Part shown: in pieces, positions 19,557-56,175 of the stretch
Layout: each line of letters starts with the position of its first letter
Numbering within the stretch: the first letter of the stretch is position 1
Assembly (NCBI GenBank): GCA_027487215.1
Contig: JAIYDZ010000007.1
Location: 66,961 to 130,960 of the forward strand
Direction: 5' to 3'
DNA length: 64,000 nucleotides
From: Pseudomonadota bacterium
GTDB lineage: Bacteria; Babelota; Babeliae; Babelales; CAIQNR01
Translations under genes and position numbers: made by a program
Notes under the pieces: model-generated
Told to the model about the DNA's origin: nothing
What the model saw: the letters and a program-made list of their open reading frames with translations, nothing else
Database searches by the model: none

Positions 19557-19567
19557 AAGAAGTAATT

Positions 19568-23015: not shown

Positions 23016-23057
23016 CAAATAAGCTCGATCTAATCGATATTTTAAAGCTTTTACCAA

Positions 23058-23086: not shown

Positions 23087-23248
23087 TATAGTAAATTAAT
23101 GGGTAAAAAAGCCCTATTAATTAACCTTTTTAGAAAACTAAAAATTTGACATTCCTGCAATTTACGGCATCCTTTGATGTTACCTCGCTACTTTGATAAT
23201 TTAATCAAAGTGGCATTTAATTAGGCTTCATTACTACTCTCCTTTTTT

Positions 23249-23287
23249 CCATCGCATTGATTTCGGTCAGTGCGGTGGATTTTTTTT
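23249..23287 (+). terminator. rho-independent terminator inside the recF-S8 spacer
   Basis: CCATCGCA (23249-56) pairs with TGCGGTGG (23271-78), including one G-U pair, followed by ATTTTTTTT. T-run on the plus strand only. Confidence 0.7.
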
Positions 23288-23355
23288 GGACTATTTGAAT
23301 TTTTAAGGCATTAATCATATCTTAAAAAAAAGGTATTCTTATAAAAAAGGTCTTC

Positions 23356-24873: not shown

Positions 24874-24876
24874 AGT

Positions 24877-29245: not shown

Positions 29246-29818
29246 TTAATTAAGTTTGAGTAATTTTTGAATACCATACAGAGCAGTACGAGCAATAGAT
29301 CTGACTCTTTCAGGATTATTTGCATGGTCGTAAATTCCCTGATTTTTTCTATCCTTTAGAAGATAATCAACTCTTGAATCATCTTTAACCAATCTGACTG
29401 CTTCTACATTTCCATATTCAATAGCATACATTAAAGCAGTCCACCCAAGATTATCTTGCAGATTTACATCTAGCTTTGGAGATTGCAATAAGCGTTTCAC
29501 ACTTTCATTATTACCATATTGAATTGCATACATTAGTGCAGTTCTTTCATACTTATCCTGTTTATTTATTTCTAATTTTTCTTTTTGCATCAGTTTGTTT
29601 ACTACTTCAGGATTATTTTCAATAACTGCGTACATTAAGGGGGTCATTCCCACCATATTTTCAGCATTAATATCAGCGTTATTATTAAATAACTCTTGGA
29701 CTTTTTCAATGTCACCTGATTTTATAGCATCCATTAAATCAGTTCTTCCAAAATCATCAGAATAAGAATGGTGAACTATTATAAGTAAAAATAAAAAAAA
29801 TATATTTTTCATTTTCAT
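29246..29818 (-). CDS. secreted ankyrin-repeat protein (about 4 repeats)
   Basis: Signal peptide MKMKNIFFLFLLIIVHHSYS. Repeats GRTDLMDAIKSGDIEKVQELFNNNADINAEN, GMTPLMYAVIENNPEVVNKLM, RTALMYAIQYGNNESVKRLL and GWTALMYAIEYGNVEAVRLV. Confidence 0.85.
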   Translation of the reverse strand: MKMKNIFFLFLLIIVHHSYSDDFGRTDLMDAIKSGDIEKVQELFNNNADINAENMVGMTPLMYAVIENNPEVVNKLMQKEKLEINKQDKYERTALMYAIQYGNNESVKRLLQSPKLDVNLQDNLGWTALMYAIEYGNVEAVRLVKDDSRVDYLLKDRKNQGIYDHANNPERVRSIARTALYGIQKLLKLN

Positions 29819-37701: not shown

Positions 37702-38319
37702 TTATTTCCCTTGGTTCACACTATTTTGATCGTCAACTAACTTCTTAATTTCTGGTGTTGCCTTACTATAAAATATACTAAAAGCGTCTCTGAAATTTGA
37801 ACTTGTTGATATTTTATTATAATCAATTTGTGCGCCCTTTTTTAAAAGAGCAAGTGCAATTTCAGGTGAGCATCCATTTTCAATAACAATTGTAAGAGCT
37901 GTAACACCAAATCTAGCTTGAATAGAAATATCTGCGTTATTATTAAGCAACATTTGTAAGATCTCTTGATTACAGTTGCTTGCAGCAGACATTAACGCAG
38001 TCCTCTGGTTACCATCTTGTGCATTAATGTCTACTATTTTGCCATGTAATTTTTTATTTAATAAAAACTCTACCGCCACTTTATCATTATCCTGAACTTT
38101 TCTTATTAAAACAGTAGCATTACTACGATCACGAGTGTTGATATCAGCACCTTTTTTAAGAGCTTTTTTTGCATCTTCAAAATCTTTTTTATAAATAGCA
38201 TTTTTAAAATCAACATCAACTTGCTTGGTTTGATCAGAGTAACCTCCAGGTCTGCCTGCAAAAATTGACTGCCCGCACAATATCAAAAACAACAAAATAA
38301 ATAACTTATTTTTTACCAT
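37702..38319 (-). CDS. secreted ankyrin-repeat protein (about 4 repeats)
   Basis: Signal peptide MVKNKLFILLFLILCGQSIFA. Repeats include RTALMSAASNCNQEILQMLLNNNADISIQ and GVTALTIVIENGCSPEIALALLKKGAQID. Confidence 0.85.
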   Translation of the reverse strand: MVKNKLFILLFLILCGQSIFAGRPGGYSDQTKQVDVDFKNAIYKKDFEDAKKALKKGADINTRDRSNATVLIRKVQDNDKVAVEFLLNKKLHGKIVDINAQDGNQRTALMSAASNCNQEILQMLLNNNADISIQARFGVTALTIVIENGCSPEIALALLKKGAQIDYNKISTSSNFRDAFSIFYSKATPEIKKLVDDQNSVNQGK

Positions 38320-39769: not shown

Positions 39770-40162
39770 TTACACAAATAATCTATTTAGATCTTTATTT
39801 TTAAGAATCATATATGCACCGACAAGGCCTGCCGGACCCGTTAAAGCATCTACGGTACGCGCTACCCCTTTAAAATCTTCAGATACTTTGTCTAAGGATT
39901 CTCTCCGTGCTTTATCAAAATAAGAACTAAAACCCAAGCTCGATAAACCAATAAAGCTATAGGTTAAACCTACCGCTTGCTGGGATGAATTACCTAAAAA
40001 TACTGCCGGAACCCCTTTTAGAATCATCAGCAATCCCGTAAAACCAAAGGTGCTGTAGCCAAATCCAGATATCCCTACTGAAGCAATGTTTGCCGCATCA
40101 CTTAAAGGTGTTGCTGACAAAGAACCCATTAAAAAGAGCGTTAAGAAATATTTCTTGTACAT
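39770..40162 (-). CDS. small secreted/membrane Gly-Ser-Ala-rich hypothetical protein
   Basis: Signal peptide MYKKYFLTLFLMGSLSA. G/S/F-rich hydrophobic stretches (VGISGFGYSTFGFTGLLMILKG, GLTYSFIGLSSLGFSS). Confidence 0.5.
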   Translation of the reverse strand: MYKKYFLTLFLMGSLSATPLSDAANIASVGISGFGYSTFGFTGLLMILKGVPAVFLGNSSQQAVGLTYSFIGLSSLGFSSYFDKARRESLDKVSEDFKGVARTVDALTGPAGLVGAYMILKNKDLNRLFV

Positions 40163-40208: not shown

Positions 40209-40688
40209 TTATAAATTTTTAGCTGCTTTAAAAGCAGCTATTGCTGCTGGCTTTAAAGGCGAATTATACACCGCTGTTCCAGCTCCTGCAATGCCCCAAA
40301 ACCAACGAGAATCTTTATAGCCTTGACGAGTGTTAAGGTTACATTTAATTTCAAACCATTGACGGCTTTTCTTGGCTGCATAATATGCACCGTATTGTAC
40401 AGTACCTACTACGGCAAAACTTACAGCCGAATTGATAAGATCTCTACTCATTTCAAAAGAAGATGGCTCATTTGGTTGCAAATCTTCAGACTGATCAGAA
40501 TTAAGAATCATTGCCACACCTAAAAAACCCAATGCTCCAGTTGCTAGGTTGCAGATACTTCTTGCTCTCAAATTACTCTCGAAAAAAGTAAGTCCATAAC
40601 CGATTTCAGCTGAAAAATCTTGTGCTGCTTTAGCACCAGTAAAAATTGAACTCATAAAAACAAATGTAAGTATTATTTTCTTATTCAT
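40209..40688 (-). CDS. small secreted/membrane Gly-Ala-rich hypothetical protein
   Basis: RBS AGAGG and signal peptide ...FTGAKAA. Stretches such as ATGALGFLGVAMIL and WFWGIAGAGTAVY. Composition similar to the neighbouring gene. Confidence 0.5.
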   Translation of the reverse strand: MNKKIILTFVFMSSIFTGAKAAQDFSAEIGYGLTFFESNLRARSICNLATGALGFLGVAMILNSDQSEDLQPNEPSSFEMSRDLINSAVSFAVVGTVQYGAYYAAKKSRQWFEIKCNLNTRQGYKDSRWFWGIAGAGTAVYNSPLKPAAIAAFKAAKNL

Positions 40689-40823
40689 AAAAGTGCCTCT
40701 CTAAAAAGTTTTTGATATAGTTGCAAGCAGTATAGAGGCTATTTATAGAAAGTAAAAAAAGAGTGCCAAGCTCACCTTAAATAAGCTCAACACCCTTTAA
40801 ATATCTTTTTTAGTAAGTGGGAA

Positions 40824-42341
40824 TTACTTCCACTGCATTACAAAATCAATGAGCAAACGGGTACCAACCCCTGTTGCACCAATTCCGCGGTAATACGGAG
40901 TATCTGGTACTTCATCAGCGGCCGCTGCAATATCAACGTGCACCCATGGAGTTTCGCCCACAAAGTGACTCAAAAAACATGCGCCATTAGTTGGACCTGC
41001 GTAATACTTTGACTTGCCGTCATTATTAATATCAGCAATGTCAGATTTAACCATTACTTTATAACGGTCAATCATCGGCAAACGCCAGGTCGCATCACCA
41101 GAAGTTTCACCTGCTTGTTGAACACGCTGTGCCAAATCATCGTCTTGTGTTAAGACACCACTAAAAAATGGTCCGACTGCATGCGATACTGCACCAGTTA
41201 AGGTAGCAACATCAATCATTGCTGTGGGTGTAAAATGTTTTGAAGCGTATGCAAGCGCATCAGCAAGAACCAAACGACCTTCAGCGTCAGTGTTACCCAC
41301 AACTGCAGTTTTACCGTTATAAAAACGAATAATATCACCAGGATGGTTTGCATTGCCACTGACCATGTTTTCAGCAAGTGGAGCAAGTACAACCACGTTA
41401 ATATCTGGCTTTAATTGAGAAAGTGCAGCGATTGCATTAATAACTGCAGCAGCCCCGGTCATGTCAACCTTCATGGTTTCCATAAATCCGGTTGGTTTTA
41501 AATTAAGACCACCGCTGTCAAAGGTAATACCTTTACCTACCAGCGCGAGTGTTGGTGCATTTTTCTTTTTGGCAGTGTATTGCATGATTACCAGTTGAGC
41601 ATCGTGTTGCGAGCCCATACCAACTGCTTTAATACCGCCCATGCCAAGTTTTTCAATCTCTTTTTCATCAAACACGGTGATTTCAAGATTGTGGTCTTTT
41701 GCAAGTTTTTTTGCACGCTTTGCAAGTTCAGGTGGCGTAATAACATTTGCTGGTAAATCTACCCAATGACGTGAACGATTAACCGCCTCTGCGATAATAG
41801 TTCCTACACGAGCTCCTTCGTGGGCAGCTTTGTCATCTTTTTTGGGAGCAACAAAAATTATTTGATCAAGTTTATGAACCTTAGCGTCATTGCTAATAAA
41901 ATCATCAAACTGATATTCTGCCATTAAAAAAGTAGTAGTCATGGTGCGCACCATAAACTCTGTACCATGTCCATAGACTGCAGTTGCAGGTACTTCACAT
42001 GCCAAAGATGAAATTTTTACTGTTTCAGCCCAGCGCATCGATGCACCAAGTATGCGTCGAAAATCTTCAAGTTCCATATACTTTGCAGTTTTCTTTTTAC
42101 TGCCAAGTCCAACAAAAAGAAGGTGCTTGATTCCTTCTTTGCTTGAACCTTGAACACTTACGCGTTGTCCAAGTTTTCCTTCAAACTTATTTGTTTTGAA
42201 TAATGTTTCAAGATGAGGAAAATAAAGTTTTGCAACATCTACAAATTCTTTTTTAAATGAAAAATTTTCGTGTACAAAAAAAAGCAGTCCATCACTCTTT
42301 TGAGTAAGTACTGCTTTGTCGCTTATGATACATTTTACCAT
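40824..42341 (-). CDS. pepA: leucyl aminopeptidase (M17)
   Basis: VGKGITFDSGG and the M17 signature NTDAEGRLVLADAL. About 500 aa. Confidence 0.93.
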   Translation of the reverse strand: MVKCIISDKAVLTQKSDGLLFFVHENFSFKKEFVDVAKLYFPHLETLFKTNKFEGKLGQRVSVQGSSKEGIKHLLFVGLGSKKKTAKYMELEDFRRILGASMRWAETVKISSLACEVPATAVYGHGTEFMVRTMTTTFLMAEYQFDDFISNDAKVHKLDQIIFVAPKKDDKAAHEGARVGTIIAEAVNRSRHWVDLPANVITPPELAKRAKKLAKDHNLEITVFDEKEIEKLGMGGIKAVGMGSQHDAQLVIMQYTAKKKNAPTLALVGKGITFDSGGLNLKPTGFMETMKVDMTGAAAVINAIAALSQLKPDINVVVLAPLAENMVSGNANHPGDIIRFYNGKTAVVGNTDAEGRLVLADALAYASKHFTPTAMIDVATLTGAVSHAVGPFFSGVLTQDDDLAQRVQQAGETSGDATWRLPMIDRYKVMVKSDIADINNDGKSKYYAGPTNGACFLSHFVGETPWVHVDIAAAADEVPDTPYYRGIGATGVGTRLLIDFVMQWK

Positions 42342-42446: not shown

Positions 42447-45400
42447 TTAATTACGCTCTGCAAATGCTGGTATTAAAGCCGGTACAGCAAGAAGAAGTGC
42501 TGGCTTTGTTGCAGATACAGTAATACCACCTAACTTTCTTTCAATGCCACGCATGGTCATCGCATCAAGAACATCTCCTGTTGGTACACCATTGGTATCA
42601 TATAAAATGCCTCCAGGAGAACTATCAGTTGAATATGAAACATATCCTTCTTTTAAAGAATCTCCATAGGTTTCATCTGAAGACAGAACATATAAAAGCG
42701 TTCCGGTTGCACTGTCAAAACGGAGTCGATTTACTGCTTTTTCAAGTGCATTACATTTTTGTGTAAGTTCATTAAGTGCTTGTCCACTCTGTTCTTGTAA
42801 ACTTTTTTCAACCTCAGCACCATTTGCGTATGCCTGTTGTTGAAGCACTGCTGTTTGTTTTTGTAAAGCTTGATCAGGCGTAGCTTGTTGACTTGCACTG
42901 TTTGTTTGCAACGCGTTAATTGTTTGTGCTTTATTTTTTTGCACCTGTGCAATTGCTTTGTCATAAAAGTTTTTAATAGTGTCTAACGCACTTGCTTTGT
43001 ATTGACTATAATCACTATCACCTTGCTTAAGCGCAGACAAATCAACTTTCTGAAGGGAGGAAGAGTTAACCTGTTTAACAAGAGTTAATCCACCCTCATT
43101 TGATATAACCAACTTAAGCTTTAAAACCTGTAACAATTTAGCAACATCAGCAGTTACAGTGCTTGGATATTCATAACCATATACTTGTTGTTTAGTAAGT
43201 TCATGGTCGTACATAATCATATAATTAATATCATTAGGATATTGAGTACCTGATGAACTCGCGGTAGCACAACCAGGAATTGAAGAAAGCGCAGCGCTCT
43301 CAGCACGACATTGTAAAAGCGGAGAAACTGCTTGGACTACACTCAGTGAGGCGGTACGATTTTTATAATCAGCGCCTGTTTTTGCATCAAATCCAAAATA
43401 TTTTCCGCGATACATAACACCAGTAATTTTACCTTTAGTAGAAGAATTATCACGATTATCAACATATGCGATACTGCGTAAAAACTCTGAATCTGCAATC
43501 GAATCCTCTACAAAACTAAGAGCTTGATTACCTTGAGATTTGGCAACGCCAAGATGACTTAATACATAAGAACTGACAAAAGATTCACCTGTCTTAGTAA
43601 CGACTGGTTTAAAACTACCAATCAACGATTGTTCATCTTGATAAAGCGTCCACTCATCTTTGCCAACATTATAATACGCATCAAGGGTGACTAAAGAACT
43701 GGCGCTTGTTACATTGCTCATGCGATAAATCTTTTGAGAAAGCTTCATGCCTTCCTTCTTAAGATCATTAGTTGCTTTTGCAAAATTAGTAGACATACGC
43801 GTATCAAGAGTGTCAACACTCATCTGCGCATTCGTTTCAGGATCAGTTATAGTTTGTGCTGGAACAGTTTCATTCCATGTTTTGAGTATTTGGTTAGGCG
43901 CTTTAGGATCAACTGCATAGACCGATCCGTCAATTTTATACGTTTGTGGATTGAGGTAAGTAAGATTATAGGTTTTAGTAGCATCACTATATTGATAACT
44001 CACTCTACCACTCTGAGTAATAAATTCATTAAACACGAGCGAACTTGCATCAGTAAATGAACCTGAAACGGGAACAACTAATCGCATTTGTCCATCTGAA
44101 TTTCCCCATACTGTCAAAGGAGCTGTCATTAATGGTGTACCATCTTTGCCTAATGGCAGATAAGTGTCTGTTTGAGTAGATGCTGGTTGCCCGTCTGCAC
44201 TGTACTCAAATCCTGTTACCAAACTAAGATAAGAGTAACTACCATTAGCACGATTTATTTGTAATAAAATATCTGAAGGACGCTTTTGATCAACGATCTT
44301 CATATCTTTTGGTGTAAGATCCTTAGTAGTAGGAGTCTCAAAATTAACAATGTTTTTGTAAAGATAATAAGCAACACCGGTCGATGTTTTTAGTCCTTGT
44401 TCTGTATCAACCAACTGCATAAATTTACCATTTTTACCACCACCTAAGGACTTATCATCTGATGACATCGAAAGTGCTGTACGTGCTACTGGAAATGCTT
44501 TTGTTTGGGTAGAGCCATCATCTGAAACAATAATACCTTGCGCTAACGCCATTGCTCGGGCAGTTCCTGAGCCAAGCACGCTTTGTGGAATCATTTTTCC
44601 ATTGGATCCGATTTTACAATGCAAACCGGTTGGAACTTGATTGATAAGCGCATCAGAAGACTTTGCGATATTAAATGCGTAGTAATTAACCGGCTCATCT
44701 GTTTTTTGTGCAGATTGATCAATATCTTCTGGGCGAATCTCTTTCAAGAAAAACTGTTGTGTTGCACTGTCATAATACATTCCACGAGAACCTTGCACAG
44801 GTTTTAACTGGGAAATATTTGGAAATTTATAGTCATTTGCTCCTGATTGTAATGCTTCAAATACTTTCTGTTGATAACTTTTTTGACCAGATTCCTGTGT
44901 TTTCTCTTTTTCAAGTTGTGCAAGTTGGCCATCAACATATTTTTTATTTGCCGCTGAAAGCGCTGATTGCAGTTCTGCTCTAACCGGCGACCCACTTGCC
45001 TTTGTTATATAATCAACCATTTGTCTATCAAATCCAAGCAGTGTCATCTTACTTTTATCCAGAGGCAATATTTGATCAGCATACGTTTGCATAGAACCAT
45101 CTGCTCCCACAAACGCATTTTCTGAACCTGAACGGGTGTATTGTATTGATGAAACAAAACTTAAAATACTACGAGTGGTATTTGAAAGAGGGAAGTTAAC
45201 CATATCACCATCAGTTGCGACAAAGTAGTCATAAACATCTGGATTATTAAGAGTCCCGTTATAAGCCTGATAGATATAGTTACCATTATTACTATCTTTT
45301 CTTTCTATAAACATCATAAACGGGCCAAATACAAAGGGTCCCATTTTATCAGCTGTCTTACCATCCTGCAGAGTATCAACACGAACTTGTAACCCATCAG

Positions 45401-48400
45401 GTAAAACTTTACGACCAACATTTTTTAAAACACTCTCAATAACATTAACAGGATTAAACGTGTAAGCTTGACCTCTAAAGTTTACAATCGGAATCACTCG
45501 TTCAGTGTTGGTGGTTTTGTCAAAACAACGGACGAGAACAGAACCTGTTCCTATATTAACAAGAAGGTTAAGCGACTTATTATTTACAAAATTAGTACCA
45601 AGATCAGTTAGCGCACTCAGCAGAATCTCTTGTTGAGCAATAAGCACTTCAAAAGTTTTTCCATCAGCTAAAGCAGGCATTCCGACCGCACGCGCAGTAG
45701 ACATAAACTCTGATCCTGTTGCATAACGTAATGACGAAGGAAGTTCACTGATACTTAATGCACTTGCTCCTAGCTTGCCAGCAACCCACCATCCTTGAAG
45801 GGGCATTCCAACAGGCGAGGTCACTGTATACAAGAATAAATCTTCTGTTAATGAACTTTGATCTGCCGCAATGCTCCATCCTTGTGCTGTAAAATCATGC
45901 GGACCTTCTGATAAAATCATACTCCATTTTTTTTCTGGAGTTTGAGTATCCTTAAGCAATGCTTGGCGCCACAAAGTATGAACCTGTGTAAAGGTATAAT
46001 TTTCTTTTTGAGTATCTTGAGCAACTTTACCTTCTTGGGCAAGCGCTTTTTCAAGTGCAGCCATATCTTCTGTTTCTGGACTTGTAATACCAGTCAGAGC
46101 AACCGGCAATATTTCAAGTAATGAAACAGGCAATGTTTTGATATTTTTTTGATTTACACTACTTACAAAAGCACCCTGAGTTGCTTGATCTGTGACTGAC
46201 TGTACCGTGTAATCATAACGCAATGTTAAGAAATGAAATGGCGACATCTTAACGACATCTGCTTGACTGCGTGTACTGTTAATCGGATTTAAATCTGATT
46301 CTACAAACGCCGTTGCAAGAGGAACAGCTTTACCGCCATCCTGAATCTCATACCCATTACTGCAACGTGCTGGATTACTTGCACAAGGGCGCGGTTTGCC
46401 CGCAGCATCAGCAACCACAAGATCAGTCACCACACTTTTTGGAAATAAATTATAAGTAGGATCATATACTTTTGAAGTCACTAAACTGATAAGTGCTGTT
46501 ACTTTTGATGAAATATGAGGCAAGCTCATACCACTTGAAACTTCTGCTTGTGAGCCAAGCGACACGTTTAAATAATTACCGGTAGCATGATTGATCGTAA
46601 CAGGAATAACATAATCAGGGAGTGTGTGTGCACCTTCTGGACTTGATAATGCATTGTCTATTCTATAAATATAAAGACTTTTAAGAACTTCACGTTTATC
46701 GCTTACGTTCATGCCGCTCGATTTTTGATCTTTTTCAGACTGGCCAGCTTTTCCTAATTCTTGAACATTTTTAGTATTCTCAAAAGCAGCATCAATACCT
46801 GCATCTATTTTAAGATCAAGTTCTTTTACTAAGTGAGCAGTTAAACCATCTCGCAATACAAATGGACCTTGTGTAATAACATTTTTTGCAAACGAACGCA
46901 TTGCGCCAATCTGATTTAGCAGTAAGCGTCTTGTACCATATAATGATTGAAAATTACTCATTACTTTATTTGTTACTGTCTCATAATCAGCTGAACCATC
47001 TTGTGTACGCAGCAGTGTCGGTTGTGCACCAGGAATAAAGGTTGCACCAGTTACTAAACTTACTAAATACGCAATATCTTTATTAGAAACAAATTCAACA
47101 ACAGGAGCTCCAATTGCGCCCTCTTTGTTAGAGTTAATATGTGGTACTTGTGCAGGAATGATGTTATTACCTATATCAACAGCAACAAGATAATCCCAGA
47201 CACAATCTTTTAGTGATGGAGAAACAATCGATTTGATAAATCGTGCAGCAGGAGTGCTATCAGTTTGATAGACGTATACTTGCTGTGCTAATAAATGAGC
47301 ATCATATACATCTCCACCAACGCCAAGCCCCGCACTATTTCCTGTAATTTTTTCTGTAGGAATAACAGGATTATTTTCTTGCACAATAATTTGCGCGCGC
47401 TGACCGTTTTGTAATCCCTTTAGTATATTGTTACCCAGATCACGCTCAGTTCCATTAGTTTCAAACAAATCAGCATAGTGTGACAATGCGTAGGTCATTG
47501 CTCCCAATGGCGCAATACCTTGCACATGAATTCCAAATTCAGAAAGATTAATCCCATCTTTAAAAACATCCAATGTTTGTTGTAATAACGGAGAAATATG
47601 AGTAGTAGAATCGGGAACAAACAATGCTTGAATTGATGCATCAGTTGCGCCACTAAACCAATGTTTCCCCATACTGTTTGGGTTTATGCTTAAGGTAGAT
47701 TTTTGTACTCTAATGTCTCCTGATAAAGAACGTACTTTATCATCAAGCATGCTTTGAATAACAAGTTCTTTTCGTGAAGAAGTAGATTCTTTTTCTGAAG
47801 AAAGCAATGGATAAACTTTTGTAATAACACCAGCACCATTAATAACAGCACCTGTCTTTAGTTCAATGACATCTGTTACTTTACCAGAGTTAACATAGTC
47901 CATTCCAACTTCTTGATATTGATTAAGAGACATAAAGAATCGACGTGACTGTGATTTTAAACCGCTTGCCCATGGTGAGTCAGCATAGATAAAAGTACCA
48001 CTTAACGGATCTTTAAACATAACCGTTCCTGGTAAAACTTTCATAATGATAGTACCAAATTGTGCACGTGCAGTAATGGTATTATAAAGCGCTGTCGCAG
48101 CTTGCTCTTCTTGCATCTGTCTCCATATTTCTCCCGGCAAAGGGAAGATAAGAGCCATACCAACTTGATCACCTAAGAATTTACCAAACCCCTTCACTCC
48201 TCGGCCAAGGGTATTCCAAAAACCAAGATGATCGTCAATATAATTAACCATTTCATGCTCAGCAGCAATTTTTGACTCTAGAGCCTCTTTTTGTTTGATT
48301 AAAGATTCACGGTCTTCAAATTTTTTAACACGCGTTTCTATTTCTTCTGAAGTTAACTTACCTTCTTTTTGTAAGTTTTCACGAAACTCCTCAGAAGTTT

Positions 48401-49460
48401 TAGATGCTTTAGTTTGTGTAGACAATTCTTCTTCACGAAGTTTTATAAGTTTTTCTTCTGCAGAAAGACCTTCTAATTCATTTATTTTGGATTTAAACCC
48501 TAGTTCTTCATCGAGTCCACGAATCTGTTGTTCAAGATCAGCCGACTGTCTTTCATAACTACTAATACGATCTTTTGACGCTGCACGAGTTTCTTTTAAC
48601 CGCTCTCTTGTTTTTTGCGCTTCAAAACCCTTTTTTGCTTCCGTAACTTGTTCTTGTGCTTGTGCTCTATTTTCCTGAGCAGCATTTAATTCTTCACGAG
48701 CTTTCATGCGAGCGTTCCGTGCTGAATCTAATGCTTCTTGTGATTGCTTAAAAGCTGCTTCTTCTTGTTCAAAAGAAGCGTTTGCACTCTTTTTTGCTTG
48801 TAATTCTTTAGTGGTTTTTTCATGCACTGATTGTGCTTTATTAAAATCCTGTTCGGCACTTTTTAACTCTGACTGAGCTTCTTTAACTCGTGCTTCAGTG
48901 AGTTTAACTTCAGTTTTTGCTTGTACATAGTCTTCAGTTACTTGTCTAAAACTACCCTCAGGAGCGCCCGCAGAAACACCATCTTTTTTTAAATTTTCTG
49001 ATGATGGAGGTACTTCTGATAAAGATTCAGAATTGGTAACAGAATCTGTTAAATTTTCTGGTTTATTTAAAGATGATTCTGAAGGAACTGGTTGCATTTC
49101 AGCAGGAACTTGGGGAACTTCAAGATTTTGTTCATTAAAACGTGCTGATTGTAGTTGCTCTTCAGCTAGAGTTTGATTTTGAACTTCTAATTGTTGGCCC
49201 TCAAGTTGCCCAATCTCACCTTCTGCTTTGTTACCGATACTTTGTAAAGCTTCTTGTTCAAGGGCTTCACGAGATGCTACGCTAGCTGCCTCAGAACTTG
49301 GATTAAGATGACCAGCCATTCCCTCTTCAAGGGTTCTTCCAATAGCAGCTTCTTCACCTTCAAGAGCTGCGGCAAACTCGCCTGCCATAATCATTTGAGA
49401 ACATAAAACAACCAACTGAACTACTAAGAATAAACTTATTTTATTGAAAGGCCTTTTCAT
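42447..49460 (-). CDS. giant secreted protein (~2337 aa), unknown function
   Basis: Single uninterrupted frame. ATG 49460 lies 6 nt after GGGGG (the track start 49466 abuts the RBS). Signal peptide ...VVLCSQMIMAG. E/K/Q-rich coiled coil at about nt 48266-48959. No internal repeat or known motif. A second coiled coil lies near the C-terminus. Hydrophobic tail KPALLLAVPALIPAFAERN. Confidence 0.85.
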   Translation of the reverse strand: MKRPFNKISLFLVVQLVVLCSQMIMAGEFAAALEGEEAAIGRTLEEGMAGHLNPSSEAASVASREALEQEALQSIGNKAEGEIGQLEGQQLEVQNQTLAEEQLQSARFNEQNLEVPQVPAEMQPVPSESSLNKPENLTDSVTNSESLSEVPPSSENLKKDGVSAGAPEGSFRQVTEDYVQAKTEVKLTEARVKEAQSELKSAEQDFNKAQSVHEKTTKELQAKKSANASFEQEEAAFKQSQEALDSARNARMKAREELNAAQENRAQAQEQVTEAKKGFEAQKTRERLKETRAASKDRISSYERQSADLEQQIRGLDEELGFKSKINELEGLSAEEKLIKLREEELSTQTKASKTSEEFRENLQKEGKLTSEEIETRVKKFEDRESLIKQKEALESKIAAEHEMVNYIDDHLGFWNTLGRGVKGFGKFLGDQVGMALIFPLPGEIWRQMQEEQAATALYNTITARAQFGTIIMKVLPGTVMFKDPLSGTFIYADSPWASGLKSQSRRFFMSLNQYQEVGMDYVNSGKVTDVIELKTGAVINGAGVITKVYPLLSSEKESTSSRKELVIQSMLDDKVRSLSGDIRVQKSTLSINPNSMGKHWFSGATDASIQALFVPDSTTHISPLLQQTLDVFKDGINLSEFGIHVQGIAPLGAMTYALSHYADLFETNGTERDLGNNILKGLQNGQRAQIIVQENNPVIPTEKITGNSAGLGVGGDVYDAHLLAQQVYVYQTDSTPAARFIKSIVSPSLKDCVWDYLVAVDIGNNIIPAQVPHINSNKEGAIGAPVVEFVSNKDIAYLVSLVTGATFIPGAQPTLLRTQDGSADYETVTNKVMSNFQSLYGTRRLLLNQIGAMRSFAKNVITQGPFVLRDGLTAHLVKELDLKIDAGIDAAFENTKNVQELGKAGQSEKDQKSSGMNVSDKREVLKSLYIYRIDNALSSPEGAHTLPDYVIPVTINHATGNYLNVSLGSQAEVSSGMSLPHISSKVTALISLVTSKVYDPTYNLFPKSVVTDLVVADAAGKPRPCASNPARCSNGYEIQDGGKAVPLATAFVESDLNPINSTRSQADVVKMSPFHFLTLRYDYTVQSVTDQATQGAFVSSVNQKNIKTLPVSLLEILPVALTGITSPETEDMAALEKALAQEGKVAQDTQKENYTFTQVHTLWRQALLKDTQTPEKKWSMILSEGPHDFTAQGWSIAADQSSLTEDLFLYTVTSPVGMPLQGWWVAGKLGASALSISELPSSLRYATGSEFMSTARAVGMPALADGKTFEVLIAQQEILLSALTDLGTNFVNNKSLNLLVNIGTGSVLVRCFDKTTNTERVIPIVNFRGQAYTFNPVNVIESVLKNVGRKVLPDGLQVRVDTLQDGKTADKMGPFVFGPFMMFIERKDSNNGNYIYQAYNGTLNNPDVYDYFVATDGDMVNFPLSNTTRSILSFVSSIQYTRSGSENAFVGADGSMQTYADQILPLDKSKMTLLGFDRQMVDYITKASGSPVRAELQSALSAANKKYVDGQLAQLEKEKTQESGQKSYQQKVFEALQSGANDYKFPNISQLKPVQGSRGMYYDSATQQFFLKEIRPEDIDQSAQKTDEPVNYYAFNIAKSSDALINQVPTGLHCKIGSNGKMIPQSVLGSGTARAMALAQGIIVSDDGSTQTKAFPVARTALSMSSDDKSLGGGKNGKFMQLVDTEQGLKTSTGVAYYLYKNIVNFETPTTKDLTPKDMKIVDQKRPSDILLQINRANGSYSYLSLVTGFEYSADGQPASTQTDTYLPLGKDGTPLMTAPLTVWGNSDGQMRLVVPVSGSFTDASSLVFNEFITQSGRVSYQYSDATKTYNLTYLNPQTYKIDGSVYAVDPKAPNQILKTWNETVPAQTITDPETNAQMSVDTLDTRMSTNFAKATNDLKKEGMKLSQKIYRMSNVTSASSLVTLDAYYNVGKDEWTLYQDEQSLIGSFKPVVTKTGESFVSSYVLSHLGVAKSQGNQALSFVEDSIADSEFLRSIAYVDNRDNSSTKGKITGVMYRGKYFGFDAKTGADYKNRTASLSVVQAVSPLLQCRAESAALSSIPGCATASSSGTQYPNDINYMIMYDHELTKQQVYGYEYPSTVTADVAKLLQVLKLKLVISNEGGLTLVKQVNSSSLQKVDLSALKQGDSDYSQYKASALDTIKNFYDKAIAQVQKNKAQTINALQTNSASQQATPDQALQKQTAVLQQQAYANGAEVEKSLQEQSGQALNELTQKCNALEKAVNRLRFDSATGTLLYVLSSDETYGDSLKEGYVSYSTDSSPGGILYDTNGVPTGDVLDAMTMRGIERKLGGITVSATKPALLLAVPALIPAFAERN

Positions 49461-49602
49461 GGACATCCCCCTTTTTCACCACCTTTTTACAGTGGTCTCC
49501 ATCTATTGATATAGTTTCAGGGTAATCAATCAAAGAGCCGATCTACAAGTATTTTAGATAGTCAGCCTTAAATATGCTTATTTATGTAAAAACAATTTAT
49601 CA

Positions 49603-51099
49603 TTATTTATCGGTAAATTGTTTCATAAAGTCATAAAGCTGTGTTCTATCCATAACATCACTTGTTCTTCCGACCACTTTGCCTCTCTTAAGAACTACAA
49701 AGTGAGGAACTGAGGGAGCGTTATAACGTTTTACAATATCAAACGCAATTGCCGCATCAACCTTAAAAAATACTGCTTTTTCTGAAAGCTTTGTTGCCGC
49801 CCACTGTACCACCGGCAACATGTGCATACATGAAGGACAGGTTGAAGCATAAAAATCAAGTACAATAAGCTTCTCTGAACCTATGTCTTCAATATATTCA
49901 TCAAGAACACCTGTTGAAGTAATAGACTCAACTTCAATCTTATTATCAAGCTGTGGATCAAAAAAGAATGGCTCCAGTTTTTGAGCCACTTGCCCATTAA
50001 AACCAATATCACTGAGCCACCACATGGCATCAAGACCAGCCTTAATGCCATCTCCAGCTGCAACGCCTGCCTGTTTATAACGAGGATCAGAAACATCTCC
50101 TGCAGCAAAAACCCCTGCTAACGAAGTTTCTTGAGTACGGCCTTTTAAGGTGACATATCCCATAGAGTCAGTTTGAACGTAGTCTTTAACCATATGACTA
50201 TTAGGACTATGACCAATTGCTAAAAAGACTCCTCGTACATTTTCCCAGAAATCTCTTGCCTTAGTTTCTGTATTAACAATGTCAACGCCACTGACATGGC
50301 CATCAACGCCATGAATCTTAGTAACTGCATAATTATACATTACTTTAACGTTAGAGCACTGCTTAAGCCTTTCTGCCATTGCTGGAGACGCCCTCATTAC
50401 AGAACCTCGAACAAGCATTCTTACTTCACGAGCATATGCAGAGAGCTCTAAACATTCTTCTACGGCAGAATCTCCACCACCAATAACAACAACTGTATCA
50501 CCCTTATGATAAGGAGCATCACAAATTGCACAGGTGGTTACTCCATGCCCCCAGTATTCACTTTCACCAGGAACGTTTAACTTTTTAGGAGTTGCCCCTG
50601 TTCCTACAAAAAGAGAAAGTGCATGAAGGGTCTTTCCTTCTTCTGTTTTGACTGTATAAGGCCACGAGCTTAAATCAATACTTACCGCCGCATCGCTGAC
50701 CATAATAGCCCCAAAACGAGCAGCCTGAATCTCAAAATCTTTTACTACCTCTGCACCACGAATTTTCCTGATTGCTGGCCAGTTTTCAATATAAGAAGTA
50801 CCAGTTAACTGGCCCCCTGGTTGATTACCTTTTAAAACAACGGTTCTAATACGTGTCCGAGCCCCATAAAGTGCAGCCGCCAAAGAAGCTGGACCTGAAC
50901 CCAAAACAAGAAAGGGAACAAGATTGTCCATCCCTATTATTTTATCGATATTAATATCGCCTGCCTCAACAGAAGGTCCTCTTTTTACTTTTGCAGCTTG
51001 ATTACTATGCGGGTAATACTTCCAAAAAAAGCCTCCTGCAGCCCCTATAAAAAGAACTACCCCTAACAATGCTGCCAGCTTTTTTTCCGTAATGAACAT
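49603..51099 (-). CDS. trxB: membrane-anchored thioredoxin reductase fused to a C-terminal thioredoxin domain
   Basis: ATG 51099 follows GGAGG. TM helix LAALLGVVLFIGAAGGFFW, FAD site LVLGSGPASLAAA, redox CAIC (nt 50521-50532), VIGGGDSAVEE and GVFAAGD. Then a Trx fold with CPSC (nt 49828-49839) in LIVLDFYASTCPSCMHM. Confidence 0.85.
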   Translation of the reverse strand: MFITEKKLAALLGVVLFIGAAGGFFWKYYPHSNQAAKVKRGPSVEAGDINIDKIIGMDNLVPFLVLGSGPASLAAALYGARTRIRTVVLKGNQPGGQLTGTSYIENWPAIRKIRGAEVVKDFEIQAARFGAIMVSDAAVSIDLSSWPYTVKTEEGKTLHALSLFVGTGATPKKLNVPGESEYWGHGVTTCAICDAPYHKGDTVVVIGGGDSAVEECLELSAYAREVRMLVRGSVMRASPAMAERLKQCSNVKVMYNYAVTKIHGVDGHVSGVDIVNTETKARDFWENVRGVFLAIGHSPNSHMVKDYVQTDSMGYVTLKGRTQETSLAGVFAAGDVSDPRYKQAGVAAGDGIKAGLDAMWWLSDIGFNGQVAQKLEPFFFDPQLDNKIEVESITSTGVLDEYIEDIGSEKLIVLDFYASTCPSCMHMLPVVQWAATKLSEKAVFFKVDAAIAFDIVKRYNAPSVPHFVVLKRGKVVGRTSDVMDRTQLYDFMKQFTDK

Positions 51100-51210
51100 T
51101 CGCTCCTCCGTATCCACGATGAAAACACGAGATTTTGGTTTATTGTGCGCCAGTATATCAAAAAGAATTAATAAAGATGACCTTATTTTATAAAAGTCGC
51201 TAAAGGGTCT

Positions 51211-51297: not shown

Positions 51298-54200
51298 ATG
51301 CTGTTAACTCGGATGTTAAATAAGCTTATTAAGAAAATTTTTTTTATAGCGCTCTGTACTCTTTCTTTCAATTCAACCTACGCATTACTGCCAATGAGAA
51401 TGGGGCTAGAAAATCAAGCGTCCGCCTTAGATGAAGACAAAGTGCTTCAAGCTCGAGTCCTTCAACAAATTGACGCTCTCTTACTGTTTATTCCTTCAGC
51501 CGGCTCACGCCTACAAACACTCAAGCTTTCAAAAGAAAAAGTAACTGAAATTAGAGAAATGCTTACCGATCTTCAAAAAAGTTTACAACTTCACAAAGCA
51601 CGCGCAACATTCAATGCAGACAAAGAAAAACTGGCAAAACTTTCACTTTTGCTCAATGGTCTTACCAAAGCAATCCATGTATCTCTAACAAAATCATTTT
51701 CAAAAATGCCAGATGTCAATCCCGCAGACATCAATCGATCGATCAAAGAGATAACGCCCGAACAAATGAATCAGTTGATGGAAGAAACTGAGAAAAATTT
51801 AAATGACTTTCAGCACCTTGTTAACAACATGGGAAAAAACATTTTTAATCGTTGGTACACCAAAGCATCAGACTGGTGGAATAAACCCTTATTTACAATT
51901 TCTTCATTCAGCCAAAAAAACGCTCAAGTCTATCCCTGGTCAATTGTTAAACGCGCATTTTCTTACAGTGGCACTATTGCTTTAACAGTACACAATTTAC
52001 CTGAAGCGCAGCTGCAATCAATTTCAAACAGTTACGTACGATCATGGGCACTTGCCATTAAAGGATTAGTCGGCGATTCTCCTATTGCAACTCAAATAAG
52101 CAAACATGAAAAATATCATGAAGTAAAAGTCGACGAAGATTATGGGTGGACAATTGGAGGAACCACTCTTCCACACAATACTTCACAAGAAAAAATTATA
52201 TATGAAGACGGCTTAAATCCAATTGATCAACAAGGATTACCTCTTGCCTATTATATGACTACCCCTGAAGGAAGAACTTGGAACGAAAAATCCTATATAT
52301 CGCTTACTATTGAAAACGGAAAAATTACTCCTAAAAAAGCTTTAGAAGATGGAAAAAGATATTTTGTTGATGCTGGCAACGGTATGACGATCCCTTTTAA
52401 TAACACAGATGCCGAGATAATTTTAGGATCTCTCCAATTTAAAGGTCGCACTCTATTTGAACCATTCCCAGTACCAAAAGAAAGTCTCGTAAGAAGCTTC
52501 TTTGGTGAAACAACAAACAAAAAAACATACAGAGAACTTCTAGAAATCTTAAACAATAAAACTATTGCTCAAGATTTCGAAAAATTTACAAGAGCTACAA
52601 TGATAACAGACACTTCTAATGGACGTGTTCTTCAAGAATTTGAACCCGGCAGATTTAGATTCCTTGGAACTAACATTCCAGCTATACCATCTTCTGACAC
52701 TCTAAATAATCCAAATCGTATACTTCCAACTTTCAATGCCTGGAATAAAGATTTTCAATGGGAAGGTAAAACAATCGATCCCCTTCTTGTTAATCAAACT
52801 AATAAAGGCGAGCTCGCTCAATCTGTTGATAGCTCTGAGCCATTTGATAAATCTCCTCGCACTGGTGTTCTTAACTTTATCCGTAATAACTTGAGTTTTC
52901 TTGCTCATATTGATTTTAAAGCTAATTTTTTAAACGTCGCAGTAGGACCATTTGTTGCAAAACAAATTTACGATGACATTAAAATTCTTAAGGAAGAACT
53001 TCCCCTTGTTGCTGCTAACGTGCATAGAAAATTACGTGGTGAACAAGGAACATTCGTAAAAGCAAACGAACAAGAAACACCAAAAGAAACATTCGATGAT
53101 ATCGTAGGAAGAGAAGATATCAAAAAACAACTCCAACCTATTATTGATTTTGTTTCAAATCCAGAACGCAGCATTCAAGAAGGAATTGCAATTCCTCGCG
53201 GCTACCTTTTTGCGGGTGAACCTCAAACTGGTAAAAGTTTAATGGCTAAAGCTGTAGCAGGAGAAATTGCTAAAGCACTTACCGCTCAAGGTAAAAAAGA
53301 ATGTAAATTCTGGGCGCTTGATGTTGGATTTCTTATGACTAATGGTATTGGTTATTGCGTGGAATATATTAAGGCATATAACCTTGCTCCATGTGTACTT
53401 TTCTTAGATGAATTTGATTTAACCGGTGCTCAACGTAATGAAAATAAAAAATTCTTAGCAGATGCTTTAACTGCTATTAATGGATACACAACTTCCTCTG
53501 ATTTAAGTGAACTTATTATCTTCATTATTGCAACCAATAGACCAGAACATATCGACTATGCAATTCGTGCAGATGGTCGTTGTGGCACTATGATCTACTT
53601 TGAAAATCCTTATTATGATGCGCGAAAAAACTTTTTCAAAAGCTTCTTTGAAAAAAGATTTTTTGACCTCAATAATTTTGATCTTGATGTCTTAGCACAA
53701 GAAACGGAAGCCTGTTCCTATAGCACACTTACAAAGATTATCGAACAGACTGCAAGCATTGCAAAAAACAAAGCTGAAATACCATCACAAAAACATGCAA
53801 ATGAAGCTCTTGATATCGTAGTGCGAAAAGTAATTGCCGACGCTGATGAAATTCCTCAAGAAAAACGTCAAGTCATTGCTGCTCGCTATGGGGCTAAAGC
53901 ACTTGCGTCAGTCACCTTATCGCCAGAGAAGAAATTCACTGGTGTCAGCATTATGAAAATGACTGAGAAAATTAAGGAAAAACACGTACTACAACATTAT
54001 GAAGCCGTCGCTGATGCTGATGAAAAAACAGGTGTTCGTTTTGGTGGAATCTTTAGTTACCACAGTATTGATACCTATCATCTGATTTCAAATGCAGAAC
54101 GTATTAAAGAGTGTAAAATTGCTATTGCAGGAACAGTAGGCCAAAAAGTACTTGGGCTTGATTATATTGCATATGGAGAAGATGAAACAGAAGCACTTAC

Positions 54201-54726
54201 AATCGCACGACGTATCATCTTTAATGGATGTGATGAAAAACTATTACCTCGCAAAATAAGAGAACAAAAACTAGAGCAAGCATATTTGCTTGTGGAACAC
54301 TGTCGCAAAGAGATGGAAGAACTCATTGAATCTCGCAAGCAAGAGTTTGCGCACTTTGTAGACCTTCTACAACGTCGTCAGGTGCTGCGTGCAAGTGACG
54401 TGAAACAATGCTTTAAATTGAATAACTTTGATTTAATCAGCGATTATTTTGCTACACAAAAACCTGGTCATCCTGACGCTCAACCTTCTAGTGTTTCTTT
54501 CACTCAAGCTTCAAGTGAACTAAGTGGTCCAAGCAATCTTCCTGAATATACCACAGAAGATGAAGAACTTGATGCAATTGAGGAAGAAGAAGAAGAAGAG
54601 AACCAATCAATTGCCGGTCACACGATTTCTAGAGTTGCAAATGTTTCTCAAGATATTGCACGCGAAGAAGAAAAGAATAAGCAAGAAGAAAACCGTCAGA
54701 GCCAAGATCAGTTAAACGACGAGTAA
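51298..54726 (+). CDS. FtsH-derived AAA+ ATPase with degenerate M41 protease domain and long N-terminal extension
   Basis: N-terminal hydrophobic segment. Walker A GEPQTGKSLMAKAVAGE (nt 53215-53238), Walker B CVLFLDEFD (53395-53418) and IIATNRPEHID. The HEAGH position reads ARYGAK (53884-53898). Acidic tail EDEELDAIEEEEEEEN. Confidence 0.8.
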   Translation: MLLTRMLNKLIKKIFFIALCTLSFNSTYALLPMRMGLENQASALDEDKVLQARVLQQIDALLLFIPSAGSRLQTLKLSKEKVTEIREMLTDLQKSLQLHKARATFNADKEKLAKLSLLLNGLTKAIHVSLTKSFSKMPDVNPADINRSIKEITPEQMNQLMEETEKNLNDFQHLVNNMGKNIFNRWYTKASDWWNKPLFTISSFSQKNAQVYPWSIVKRAFSYSGTIALTVHNLPEAQLQSISNSYVRSWALAIKGLVGDSPIATQISKHEKYHEVKVDEDYGWTIGGTTLPHNTSQEKIIYEDGLNPIDQQGLPLAYYMTTPEGRTWNEKSYISLTIENGKITPKKALEDGKRYFVDAGNGMTIPFNNTDAEIILGSLQFKGRTLFEPFPVPKESLVRSFFGETTNKKTYRELLEILNNKTIAQDFEKFTRATMITDTSNGRVLQEFEPGRFRFLGTNIPAIPSSDTLNNPNRILPTFNAWNKDFQWEGKTIDPLLVNQTNKGELAQSVDSSEPFDKSPRTGVLNFIRNNLSFLAHIDFKANFLNVAVGPFVAKQIYDDIKILKEELPLVAANVHRKLRGEQGTFVKANEQETPKETFDDIVGREDIKKQLQPIIDFVSNPERSIQEGIAIPRGYLFAGEPQTGKSLMAKAVAGEIAKALTAQGKKECKFWALDVGFLMTNGIGYCVEYIKAYNLAPCVLFLDEFDLTGAQRNENKKFLADALTAINGYTTSSDLSELIIFIIATNRPEHIDYAIRADGRCGTMIYFENPYYDARKNFFKSFFEKRFFDLNNFDLDVLAQETEACSYSTLTKIIEQTASIAKNKAEIPSQKHANEALDIVVRKVIADADEIPQEKRQVIAARYGAKALASVTLSPEKKFTGVSIMKMTEKIKEKHVLQHYEAVADADEKTGVRFGGIFSYHSIDTYHLISNAERIKECKIAIAGTVGQKVLGLDYIAYGEDETEALTIARRIIFNGCDEKLLPRKIREQKLEQAYLLVEHCRKEMEELIESRKQEFAHFVDLLQRRQVLRASDVKQCFKLNNFDLISDYFATQKPGHPDAQPSSVSFTQASSELSGPSNLPEYTTEDEELDAIEEEEEEENQSIAGHTISRVANVSQDIAREEEKNKQEENRQSQDQLNDE

Positions 54727-54796: not shown

Positions 54797-54919
54797 ATGA
54801 CTTTCATAGCACATCTTTTTCAATTTAAGCTCGAAAACTCTGATGCCTTGCAGTGATAGTATTCTTTTTTATACAGTAAACATGTAGGGGAAAGTATCTA
54901 AATGGTGGGGGAGGCTCTC

Positions 54920-55519
54920 ATGAAAAAATTTTTATTCTTTATCTTCTTTTGTATTATTGCGATCAATGATGGAAAAATAAAAGCAGCACAAATTTCGTTA
55001 GACCAACAGTTAACAGGACTTACCAATGCACTTGCCACTAAAAACTATTTTTCAGCCTCAGAGGCTCTTAAAAATCTTACTGCCATTCTGAAAACAAAGG
55101 TACAATTTTCCCTTAAAGGTGGGGAATCGAGCTTTTACACCTATGTTTCTAAGAGTGTTGATGTTGGTGATGTTATGAGACCTGATGTTCAGAAAGCACT
55201 CCATGAAGTGTTTGACTGTATCGACAAGGTCCAAAAAGTAATAGATGAAATTTCTAATGTTTACCGAACAAACTCTTTGTTACTTACACAAAATATTAGC
55301 AACACAATGAGGCTCAACCAAATAAATCTCAAAGAAATCCTCTCAAAGCAGATCCAAAACTCAAACCCAGCAGTCAGAGGATTTGAGATGCTTGGATTTA
55401 ATCTCCTAGTAATGACCGCCTATCAAGAGTTTACGTCTGTTGCGTATCAATTTATAAGAGATGTTCTGCGTGCACAAACTGACTACATTCTCTTTGAACG
55501 ATATACACCTAAAAAATAA
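54920..55519 (+). CDS. secreted helical hypothetical protein, tandem paralog A
   Basis: ATG 54920 after GGGGGAGG. The N-terminus ...FFCIIAINDGKIKAAQI and the C-terminal block LSKQIQNSNPAVRGFEMLGFN...QFIRDVLRA are shared with the next gene. Confidence 0.6.
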   Translation: MKKFLFFIFFCIIAINDGKIKAAQISLDQQLTGLTNALATKNYFSASEALKNLTAILKTKVQFSLKGGESSFYTYVSKSVDVGDVMRPDVQKALHEVFDCIDKVQKVIDEISNVYRTNSLLLTQNISNTMRLNQINLKEILSKQIQNSNPAVRGFEMLGFNLLVMTAYQEFTSVAYQFIRDVLRAQTDYILFERYTPKK

Positions 55520-55566: not shown

Positions 55567-56175
55567 ATGAATAAATCTCTTATCTATAGTTTTCTTTGTA
55601 TTATTGCAATCAACGATGGCAAAATAAAAGCCGGTCAAATTGACGGCGCAACAATTAATGAAAAACAACAGGTAGAACTCTTAAAAAATGCTCTTACTCA
55701 AAACAAACTGAATGATGCGCATGATGCACTCAAAAAACTAACGGCAAGACTTAAATTTAAAGCGTATTCTACTTTAAATGATAAATCTGCAGGGCTTTAT
55801 ACCTATCTTAAAACACCACCTGAACAACAAAAACTTATAAAAGATTCCACTGAAAAAATATTACACGAAATGTATGAATTTATTGAGAGCGTTAAAGCAG
55901 TGATGGATCCTGCTCTTGAAGTTGCAAAAAGTCATGCTACTTTACTTGCAACAATGATGAATACTTATAAAGATGGTCCAGAGATGGCACTCAAAGAAAC
56001 GCTTTCAAAGCAACTGCCAGCATCAAACCCTGTAGTAACCGTATTTGATACGTTACAATTTAATACACTTACTAAACTGTACTATGAAGAGTTTGTAACG
56101 GTAGCAAATCAGTTTGTCAGAGATGTTATGCGAGCAACAATCGACTTTGTAACTTTTGGTGGCCATAAAGCTTAG
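55567..56175 (+). CDS. secreted helical hypothetical protein, tandem paralog B
   Basis: RBS GGGGG. ...FLCIIAINDGKIKAGQI and LSKQLPASNPVVTVFDTLQFN...QFVRDVMRA are colinear with paralog A. Confidence 0.6.
   Translation: MNKSLIYSFLCIIAINDGKIKAGQIDGATINEKQQVELLKNALTQNKLNDAHDALKKLTARLKFKAYSTLNDKSAGLYTYLKTPPEQQKLIKDSTEKILHEMYEFIESVKAVMDPALEVAKSHATLLATMMNTYKDGPEMALKETLSKQLPASNPVVTVFDTLQFNTLTKLYYEEFVTVANQFVRDVMRATIDFVTFGGHKA

Follow-up and report, generated by a model that had tools for sequence, protein, structure and literature searches.

Giant RTX adhesins that are exported by a type I secretion system (T1SS; LapA, SiiE, and MpIBP type) are multi-thousand-residue, acidic, cysteine-poor proteins of diderms with repeated modules. 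They have no Sec signal and carry a C-terminal T1SS signal, RTX nonapeptides, and long near-identical BIg or cadherin arrays. Gli349 and Gli521 of Mycoplasma mobile are giant exported orphans without database domains that contain weak repeats of ~100 aa and serve as structural "leg" and "crank" parts. The 64-kb stretch of contig JAIYDZ010000007.1 analysed here (below, the window) encodes on its minus strand another giant protein, referred to as the giant, in a single open reading frame (ORF) at 42447..49466. According to the results below, the giants make up a very small family that had not been described before and is known from a few uncultured low-GC bacteria. The family is tentatively read, with a rough probability of 0.45, as Sec-exported, non-enzymatic structural proteins of 2000–2900 aa that would form an envelope or surface fibre for attachment or surface architecture.

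In comparison with the RTX adhesins, the giant has a Sec-type signal peptide, gives no RTX, BIg, or cadherin match, and carries 3–5 very divergent, irregularly spaced copies of a module. Pfam yields no match in the giant at E ≤ 1 and none in the 17 family members at E ≤ 0.01, which agrees with an earlier preliminary description of the locus, where the giant was set apart from adhesins built of tandem Ig, cadherin, or RTX units; NCBIfam gives no match to the giant above its cut-offs. Proteins of type V secretion end in a beta-barrel or a YadA-like anchor, or else begin with a two-partner secretion (TPS) domain and have a TpsB partner gene. Neither Pfam nor NCBIfam matched any such domain, the C-terminal 190 aa are modelled with moderate confidence as a small beta domain preceded by a helical hairpin, and in none of the five loci compared does the annotation include a TpsB-like or Omp85-like gene. 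As for coiled-coil stalk fibres (streptococcal M protein, PspA, and trimeric autotransporters), they resemble the giant in using a long coiled coil to present or space other parts. The giant, however, has no LPXTG, choline-binding, or YadA-anchor domain, its coiled coil lies N-terminal to a huge globular region, and the NCBIfam matches over residues 157–411 stay below the cut-offs (27.8 vs 850 bits for PspA and 20.7 vs 70 bits for PgrA). The profile match to the long helical hairpins of colicin Ia (~200 residues, E = 8e-4) falls in the compositionally biased coiled coil only, ranks amid SMC, dynactin, and tropomyosin, and includes no receptor, translocation, or pore domain.

S-layer proteins carry a known anchoring domain such as SLH, are expressed at very high levels, and self-assemble into a lattice; according to Pfam the giant has no such anchoring domain, and its acidic pI, low cysteine content, and signal peptide are compatible with this class. 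In Rhs/YD proteins, YD repeats of ~20 aa (PF05593) follow one another in large number and build a shell. The giant does contain Y-x-Y and G-x-x-Y motifs, but no RHS_repeat (PF05593) match, and its module copies are 200–470 aa apart. Regarding Gli349 and Gli521, the likeness is one of general description only (giant, exported, domainless, weakly repeated, and structural rather than enzymatic): they are membrane-anchored proteins of a wall-less monoderm, whereas the giant is without a transmembrane anchor and its genome encodes FtsW and MurD. According to a preprint (bioRxiv 10.1101/2023.11.21.568195), Omnitrophota and other uncultured bacteria have proteins larger than titin (~40,000 aa) that are tied to cell-wall degradation. 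Like the giant, these are products of giant genes known from metagenomes only, in uncultured and possibly host- or prey-dependent bacteria. The Omnitrophota proteins are >10 times longer, and the giant is without any known domain. The family is genuine and had not been described before, within the broad kind of giant exported bacterial surface or envelope proteins.

The relatives that define the family are visible mainly through the core of the protein. The word-indexed search with the whole giant matched only the giant itself, probably because the coiled coil swamped the candidates. The core-only query, in turn, found P0002 (2468 aa, with 35% identity along 99% of the core), and P0003 (2570 aa) was then recovered with a profile of two core sequences. 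When 1.84 billion cluster representatives were scanned exhaustively by HMMER with a profile of giant residues 724–1845, only 21 proteins were returned, 14 of them with E < 1e-30 and nearly all 2000–2930 aa long. The giants P0001–P0016 and P0020 score between E = 0 and 1e-23 against the core profile. In all of them the signal peptide, the acidic N-terminal peptide, the coiled coil, an F-x-I-P-G junction, the three modules A, B, and C, and a beta domain at the C-terminus follow in the same order. Full-length colinear orthologs with 29–35% identity also share the acidic region and the core as a whole. The first metagenome scan for giant relatives gave no match, and a scan with a 5-sequence alignment gave two further loci; the 17-sequence alignment was too divergent for the design of scan patterns. 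No giant relative was found among GTDB species representatives (peptide-pattern scan), phage genomes (tblastn), or IMG/VR, and profiles of 3 and 17 sequences matched nothing among PDB sequences outside the coiled coil.

The gene also keeps its place. In five loci the order is trxB-thioredoxin fusion, giant, pepA, small ORFs (variably), ftsW, murD, and ileS, with the neighbours checked by homology; the trxB side was covered by the loci with an available upstream flank (L001, L019, and L020). In the three best-sampled genomes the neighbours are 58–77% identical, and the giants 29–33%. Since synteny is fixed and the identity of the giants lies far below that of the neighbours, the giant is vertically inherited, single-copy at its fixed position, and fast-evolving. 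Its lineage is uncultured, has a low G+C, and probably lives in association with eukaryotes. The faster divergence of the giant relative to the housekeeping neighbours indicates the evolution typical of exposed proteins.

The giant ORF is uninterrupted, comprises 2339 codons including the stop, and takes up 11% of the window, as the preliminary description had it. Of its two candidate start codons the second ATG (49460) is the likelier, because the spacing of a GGGGG ribosome-binding site fits it better: this site lies ~6–7 nt upstream of 49460 and abuts the first ATG. The existence of two candidates also explains why a range of 2337–2339 codons had been given. The mature protein has a mass of ~252 kDa and a pI of 5.2, and the whole contains 9 cysteines (0.4%), consistent with the very few noted previously.

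From the N-terminus, the layout begins with a predicted signal peptide (residues 1–28, MSMKRPFNKISLFLVVQLVVLCSQMIMA/G, 49383..49466; this and all further features of the giant are on the minus strand). It shows a K/R n-region, a Kyte–Doolittle (KD) hydrophobicity peak of 2.28 over 19 aa at residue 10, and then IMA/GE, with neither a lipobox nor a twin-arginine motif, and an equivalent signal-like segment is present in 13–14 of the 15 family members with an intact N-terminus. These features uphold the Sec signal peptide proposed earlier and give good support to export of the giant over the inner membrane. The lipoprotein reading was rejected for lack of a lipobox. Directly after the signal peptide comes a conserved, acidic, amphipathic mature N-terminus (GEFAAALEGEEAAIGRTLEEGM, 49317..49382), delimited by eye from aligned N-termini, whose family pattern [GA]-E-[IF]-[GA]-x-x-phi-x-E-[GA] is kept even in the most distant members. 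It opens an acidic, S/E/P-rich, low-complexity region (residues 29–170, pI 4.1, 48957..49382) that is conserved in composition only, with 15–27% identity to P0002, and corresponds to the S/E/P-rich linker of the preliminary description. The following E/K/Q/A-rich coiled coil (residues ~171–417, ~245 aa, 48216..48956) is indicated by a heptad scan and by generic profile matches and would be ~36 nm long if continuous. Its matches in the PDB are generic as well (SMC, tropomyosin, dynactin, apolipoprotein, and colicins Ia, E3, and E9).

The core (~1720 aa, residues 418–2140, 43047..48215) has 30–58% identity to orthologs and no known domain. It is opened by a junction that is conserved in the family alignment (F-L-x-x-Q-x-x-x-G-x-A-F-x-I-P-G-x-I ... 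A-L-Y-x-x-I-T, 48057..48215), with KD values of 1.6–1.8 in some members and <1.4 in this giant. A transmembrane helix at the F-x-I-P-G junction was rejected on account of its charged residues, the P-G, and the low KD value here. Behind the core lie a Q/A-rich helical hairpin (residues ~2153–2245, 42732..43010), recognized by the heptad scan and by AlphaFold2 (AF2) helices with a predicted local distance difference test (pLDDT) score of 65–76, and a small conserved beta domain (residues ~2246–2320, 42507..42731; L-Y-Y-D...G-Y-V-S-Y-P...G-G-F-x-F-x-x-x-G-x-P-T-G), located by alignment and AF2, in which G2286 is invariant in all 17 members. The picture of a giant secreted protein with coiled coils near both ends therefore holds, both for Sec-type export and for the two helical regions, the second of which AF2 models as a hairpin; the ~75-aa beta domain between the C-terminal helices and the tail had not been separated out before. 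Apart from the hairpin and this domain (pLDDT 50–76), AF2 with an input of two sequences produced unusable models of mixed alpha/beta character, with a pLDDT of 27 for residues 418–1500 and 42 for residues 1480–2339; the beta-rich character given to the core in the preliminary description is not confirmed by them. Foldseek against the PDB found no match for the second of these models (best E = 3e-3, TM score <0.1).

In contrast to plain identity, profile comparison shows that a new module of ~55–90 aa recurs in cryptic form within the core; three copies are certain, and the total is probably four or five. The preliminary description had reported no detectable internal repeat. At the identity level this stands, as self-BLAST of the giant returns nothing, whereas profile–profile and hidden Markov model (HMM) comparisons with decoys reveal the cryptic module. 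The whole-core hhalign self-comparison reaches probabilities of just 26–49%, while tile-versus-tile comparison of profiles from the 17-member alignment gives 82–92% between residues ~721–814, 923–1004, and 1387–1447. An HMM built from each module region finds the other regions in 11–16 of 17 members with independent E-values of 1e-4 to 1e-6, and the best E-value of reversed-sequence decoys is no better than 0.08. With the combined module profile, hhalign assigns at least 99% to copies A, B, and C, 48% to copy N, and 60–63% to copy D, with a decoy maximum of 1%.

Copies A, B, and C were delimited by profile and HMM comparison. Copy A spans residues 724–814 (47025..47297; VYVYQTD...DYLVAVD...IAYLVSLVTGATF), copy B residues 926–1006 (46449..46691; LYIYRIDN...PDYVIPVT...VSLG...ALISLVTSKVYD), and copy C residues 1391–1449 (45120..45296; GNYIYQAYN...YDYFVATD...FPL...ILSFVSSIQYTRSG). 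Copy N, a probable extra one matched over the full module, lies at residues 489–548 (47823..48002), and copy D, possibly partial, has the last strand motif only (YLSLVTGFEYSADG, residues 1732–1761, 44184..44273), and 13 of the 17 members give weak HMM matches there. The spacing is irregular and not tandem. Altogether 51 copies align into one module with the pattern G-x-[YF]-[IV]-Y ... D-Y-[VIL]-V ... P-L ... [ILV]-S-L-V-[ST]-G-x-x-Y, and the modules occupy the same positions in 17 of 17 members. In the L022 giant, which was left out of profile building but shares 83% identity with P0004, a member of the training set, the three copies were recovered. Within the examined loci only the giants carry the module, and its profile has no relative among PDB sequences. 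The copy C region is also found in P0019, a protein of 533 aa with a signal peptide and ankyrin repeats (shared stretch G-P-F-x-W-G-P-F ... N-I-Y-Q-A-F ... Y-D-Y ... S-L-V-S-G-I-K-Y), and because of this reuse it behaves as an independent domain.

As for the C-terminal tail (KPALLLAVPALIPAFAERN, 42450..42506), it had been proposed to be a hydrophobic tail-anchor or sorting signal. Tail-anchored proteins have a single conserved C-terminal transmembrane helix and no N-terminal signal peptide, and in C-terminal sorting signals a signature motif precedes a transmembrane helix with a basic cluster (for the type IX secretion system (T9SS), a beta-sandwich C-terminal domain (CTD) takes their place), all conserved among homologs. 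The tail is indeed hydrophobic in this ortholog (KD 1.58, with three prolines), but in this one alone. The aligned ends of other orthologs read EPLKLEVPGVGPASK; KPLKLGWPKL followed by ~55 hydrophilic residues (P0003); EPLKMTVPKMVGDAQ...; and SPVTLSIGGV, and the hydrophobic stretch and basic cluster are missing from the C-termini of P0002–P0005. The only conserved element is a short strand motif, read as P-x-L-x-L-x-x-P or P-L-x-L-x-V-P, which closes the ~75-aa beta domain and is no membrane segment. Models of sorting signals (PEP-CTERM, LPXTG, GlyGly-CTERM, and T9SS CTD) have no Pfam or NCBIfam match in the giant. The giant is thus not a tail-anchored protein because it has an N-terminal signal peptide, and the three prolines and the charged or extended ortholog C-termini speak the same way; the sorting-signal reading was rejected for the lack of conserved hydrophobicity, the missing model match, and the extension in P0003. 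The proposal that the tail is a tail-anchor or a sorting signal is, from these alignments, not supported.

Residue conservation bears on the question of catalysis. In the 17-member alignment 29 columns are invariant, and they contain G, Y, T, D, N, S, Q, P, L, and W only. Since His, Cys, Lys, Arg, and Glu are all missing from these columns, no conserved catalytic residue set stands out, and the lack of catalytic-type residues supports a non-catalytic reading. The cysteines C1028 and C1035 (46362..46385) occur as a pair in 8 of 17 members, while the remaining members have neither, and C2053 and C2066 co-occur in four members. This paired presence and absence suggests disulphide loops, and hence an oxidising compartment, which would fit an exported protein.

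Together these features would be consistent with the following arrangement. The signal peptide would carry the giant over the inner membrane, and the acidic N-terminal peptide with the ~245-aa coiled coil could act as an oligomerising stalk or anchor. This stalk would bear a ~1700-aa head, made partly of divergent copies of the new four-strand beta module, and the helical hairpin with the small beta domain would close the C-terminal end. The protein would then work without catalysis, as an envelope or cell-surface fibre for attachment or surface architecture. Oligomerisation, the crossing of the outer membrane with the final location, and the adhesive or architectural role are the steps that we infer. 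In favour of this reading are the repeated module, as in multi-domain surface proteins, the acidic pI and low cysteine content, and a neighbourhood with many exported proteins, among them two ankyrin proteins and two proteases with signal peptides (of the 44 larger ORFs of the window, about one third start with a signal-peptide-like hydrophobic segment).

Several points weigh against the surface fibre. The giant has no T1SS, type V (T5SS), or T9SS signal, and no secretion gene lies beside it in the five loci; because no feature for export over the outer membrane is seen, a Sec substrate could simply stay in the periplasm. The gene is a single copy at a fixed position, while adhesins are usually accessory and copy-variable, so that an architectural role fits at least as well. 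The core is conserved and the stalk regions are variable, which is the reverse of many adhesins. In addition, AF2 gives no usable fold (pLDDT 27 and 42), and the location of the giant is deduced from its sequence.

A bolder version of the fibre, which we consider doubtful, would see in the family the main fibre for attachment, invasion, or surface coating in a deep, uncultured, eukaryote-dependent lineage, possibly Dependentiae-like, with a beta-module fold that no solved structure has so far shown and a still unrecognised second export step guided by the acidic N-terminal peptide. It would then represent a new class of bacterial surface-organelle protein and not a divergent adhesin. If the fibre reading is true, the giant is the one large conserved exported protein that is retained at a fixed locus throughout a clade of uncultured and probably host-dependent bacteria. 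It would then be the natural first candidate for surface building or host attachment in that clade, and the known bacterial surface proteins would gain a new repeat module and probably a new fold. Both the profile of the family and the motif of its module could serve as lineage markers for detection in metagenomes and for the design of antibodies or tags for localisation. If the giant is merely another orphan envelope protein, the value is mainly negative: a genuine ORF, no known adhesin, and a tail that is no sorting signal.

The explanation that survives best besides the surface fibre is a scaffold inside the periplasm, that is, a long structural or spacing element between the membranes, possibly tied to wall growth or division. 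It is unlikely, but a serious rival because the Sec signal is accompanied by no recognisable outer-membrane secretion signal or partner gene. The single copy stands near ftsW and murD in all five loci, paired cysteines suit the periplasm as well as the exterior, and both ends are conserved (N-terminal peptide and C-terminal beta domain), as expected of a two-point tether. The proximity to ftsW and murD, however, may be a coincidence, as the nearer genes, pepA and trxB, are functionally unrelated. A protein of 252 kDa, mostly apparently globular and with a ~36-nm coiled coil, is also large for the periplasm; Pfam finds no peptidoglycan-binding, OmpA-like, SPOR, or LysM domain in the giant or 16 relatives; and such fast divergence in comparison with the neighbours is unusual for a housekeeping part of the envelope.

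Quite improbable, by comparison, is a secreted effector or toxin directed at a eukaryotic host or prey, in which the coiled coil and junction would serve membrane insertion or translocation in a colicin-like manner. The size lies within the range of large toxins, the genome context includes exported ankyrin proteins and proteases, the junction is transmembrane-like in some members, and the coiled coil weakly matches colicins Ia, E3, and E9. Yet these matches are confined to the biased coiled coil, where they stand among SMC, tropomyosin, and apolipoprotein, and the junction of this giant is charged, contains P-G, and is not hydrophobic. Effectors are also seldom kept as a single syntenic copy over such divergent genomes, and the reading is less likely because nothing catalytic or pore-like is conserved, neither a catalytic domain nor residues of catalytic type.

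A conventional giant adhesin (RTX/T1SS, autotransporter, two-partner, PEP-CTERM, or tail-anchored) with domains too divergent to recognise would explain a large, acidic, cysteine-poor, exported protein and the hydrophobic C-terminal stretch of this ortholog. This explanation is very improbable and largely refuted: models of BIg, cadherin, RTX, haemagglutinin, TPS, autotransporter-barrel, YadA-anchor, SLH, and sorting-signal domains are unmatched in the giant and 16 relatives, T1SS substrates are without Sec signal peptides, the C-terminus is a hairpin with a ~75-aa domain and not a barrel of 250–300 aa, and the tail is not conserved. Finally, the giant gene is genuine, and an artefact (a chimeric assembly, raised earlier as a concern, or a decayed, non-functional ORF) has next to no chance, as no supporting point was found in the analysis of the locus, three assembled contigs (one of 20–50 kb and two of 50–200 kb) encode the identical giant, which together with end-to-end colinearity with orthologs in four other loci rules out chimerism, G+C is uniform over the gene and both flanks, and a 7-kb open frame in 37% G+C DNA is not possible by chance.

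Among the neighbours, pepA (leucyl aminopeptidase, 40824..42341, minus strand) is syntenic in five of five loci and lies 105 nt downstream of the giant on the same strand, just as stated in the preliminary description. Its relatives among GTDB genomes have at most 42% identity and come from many phyla. The only strong terminator-like hairpin, and the first on the minus strand, follows pepA (40758–40798), and therefore co-transcription of the giant and pepA appears possible from the sequence. Between pepA and ftsW lie two small exported ORFs of 130 and 159 aa (39770–40162 and 40209–40688, both minus strand) without a Pfam match; this gap holds small ORFs of varying length in L020, L022, and L023 and none in L019. 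The syntenic upstream neighbour of the giant is a thioredoxin reductase-thioredoxin fusion with an N-terminal transmembrane helix (49603..51117, minus strand). The helix is located at residues ~14–32 (KD 2.17), and a membrane-tethered fusion of this type is unusual. Divergent from trxB is a gene at 51298–54726 (plus strand) for a protein of 1142 aa with a signal-like N-terminus, ~570 unmatched residues, and a single AAA domain (637–769), syntenic in L019 and L020 at ~41–45% identity. It is followed by tandem paralogs of ~200 aa (54902–55519 and 55567–56175, plus strand) that share the N-terminus CIIAINDGKIKA[AG]QI and have no Pfam match.

Besides ordinary housekeeping and wall-synthesis genes, the window encodes two small ankyrin-repeat proteins with Sec-type signal peptides (29246–29818 and 37702–38319, minus strand). 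The exported ankyrin proteins hint at a eukaryote-associated lifestyle with Sec-dependent ankyrin export. Signal-peptide-like N-termini are also seen in a delta-60-repeat protein (1419–2813), a clostripain-like protease (5407–6687), and a subtilisin-like protease (23356–24873), all on the plus strand. Dependentiae, parasites of protists, have a similar low G+C and a similar exported repertoire (PMC6561590), and the likeness of the window to them may be taken only as a lead. Scans of the 64-kb window for tRNA genes and Rfam families gave no tRNA gene and no family above threshold. GC skew changes its sign at ~16–18 kb, and at ~26 kb a mainly plus-strand gene orientation gives way to a mainly minus-strand one, a pattern like that of a replication terminus; the zone of the switch (~16000–26000) holds a xerC/D-like recombinase (18624–19556) and dnaN-recF (20815–23015).

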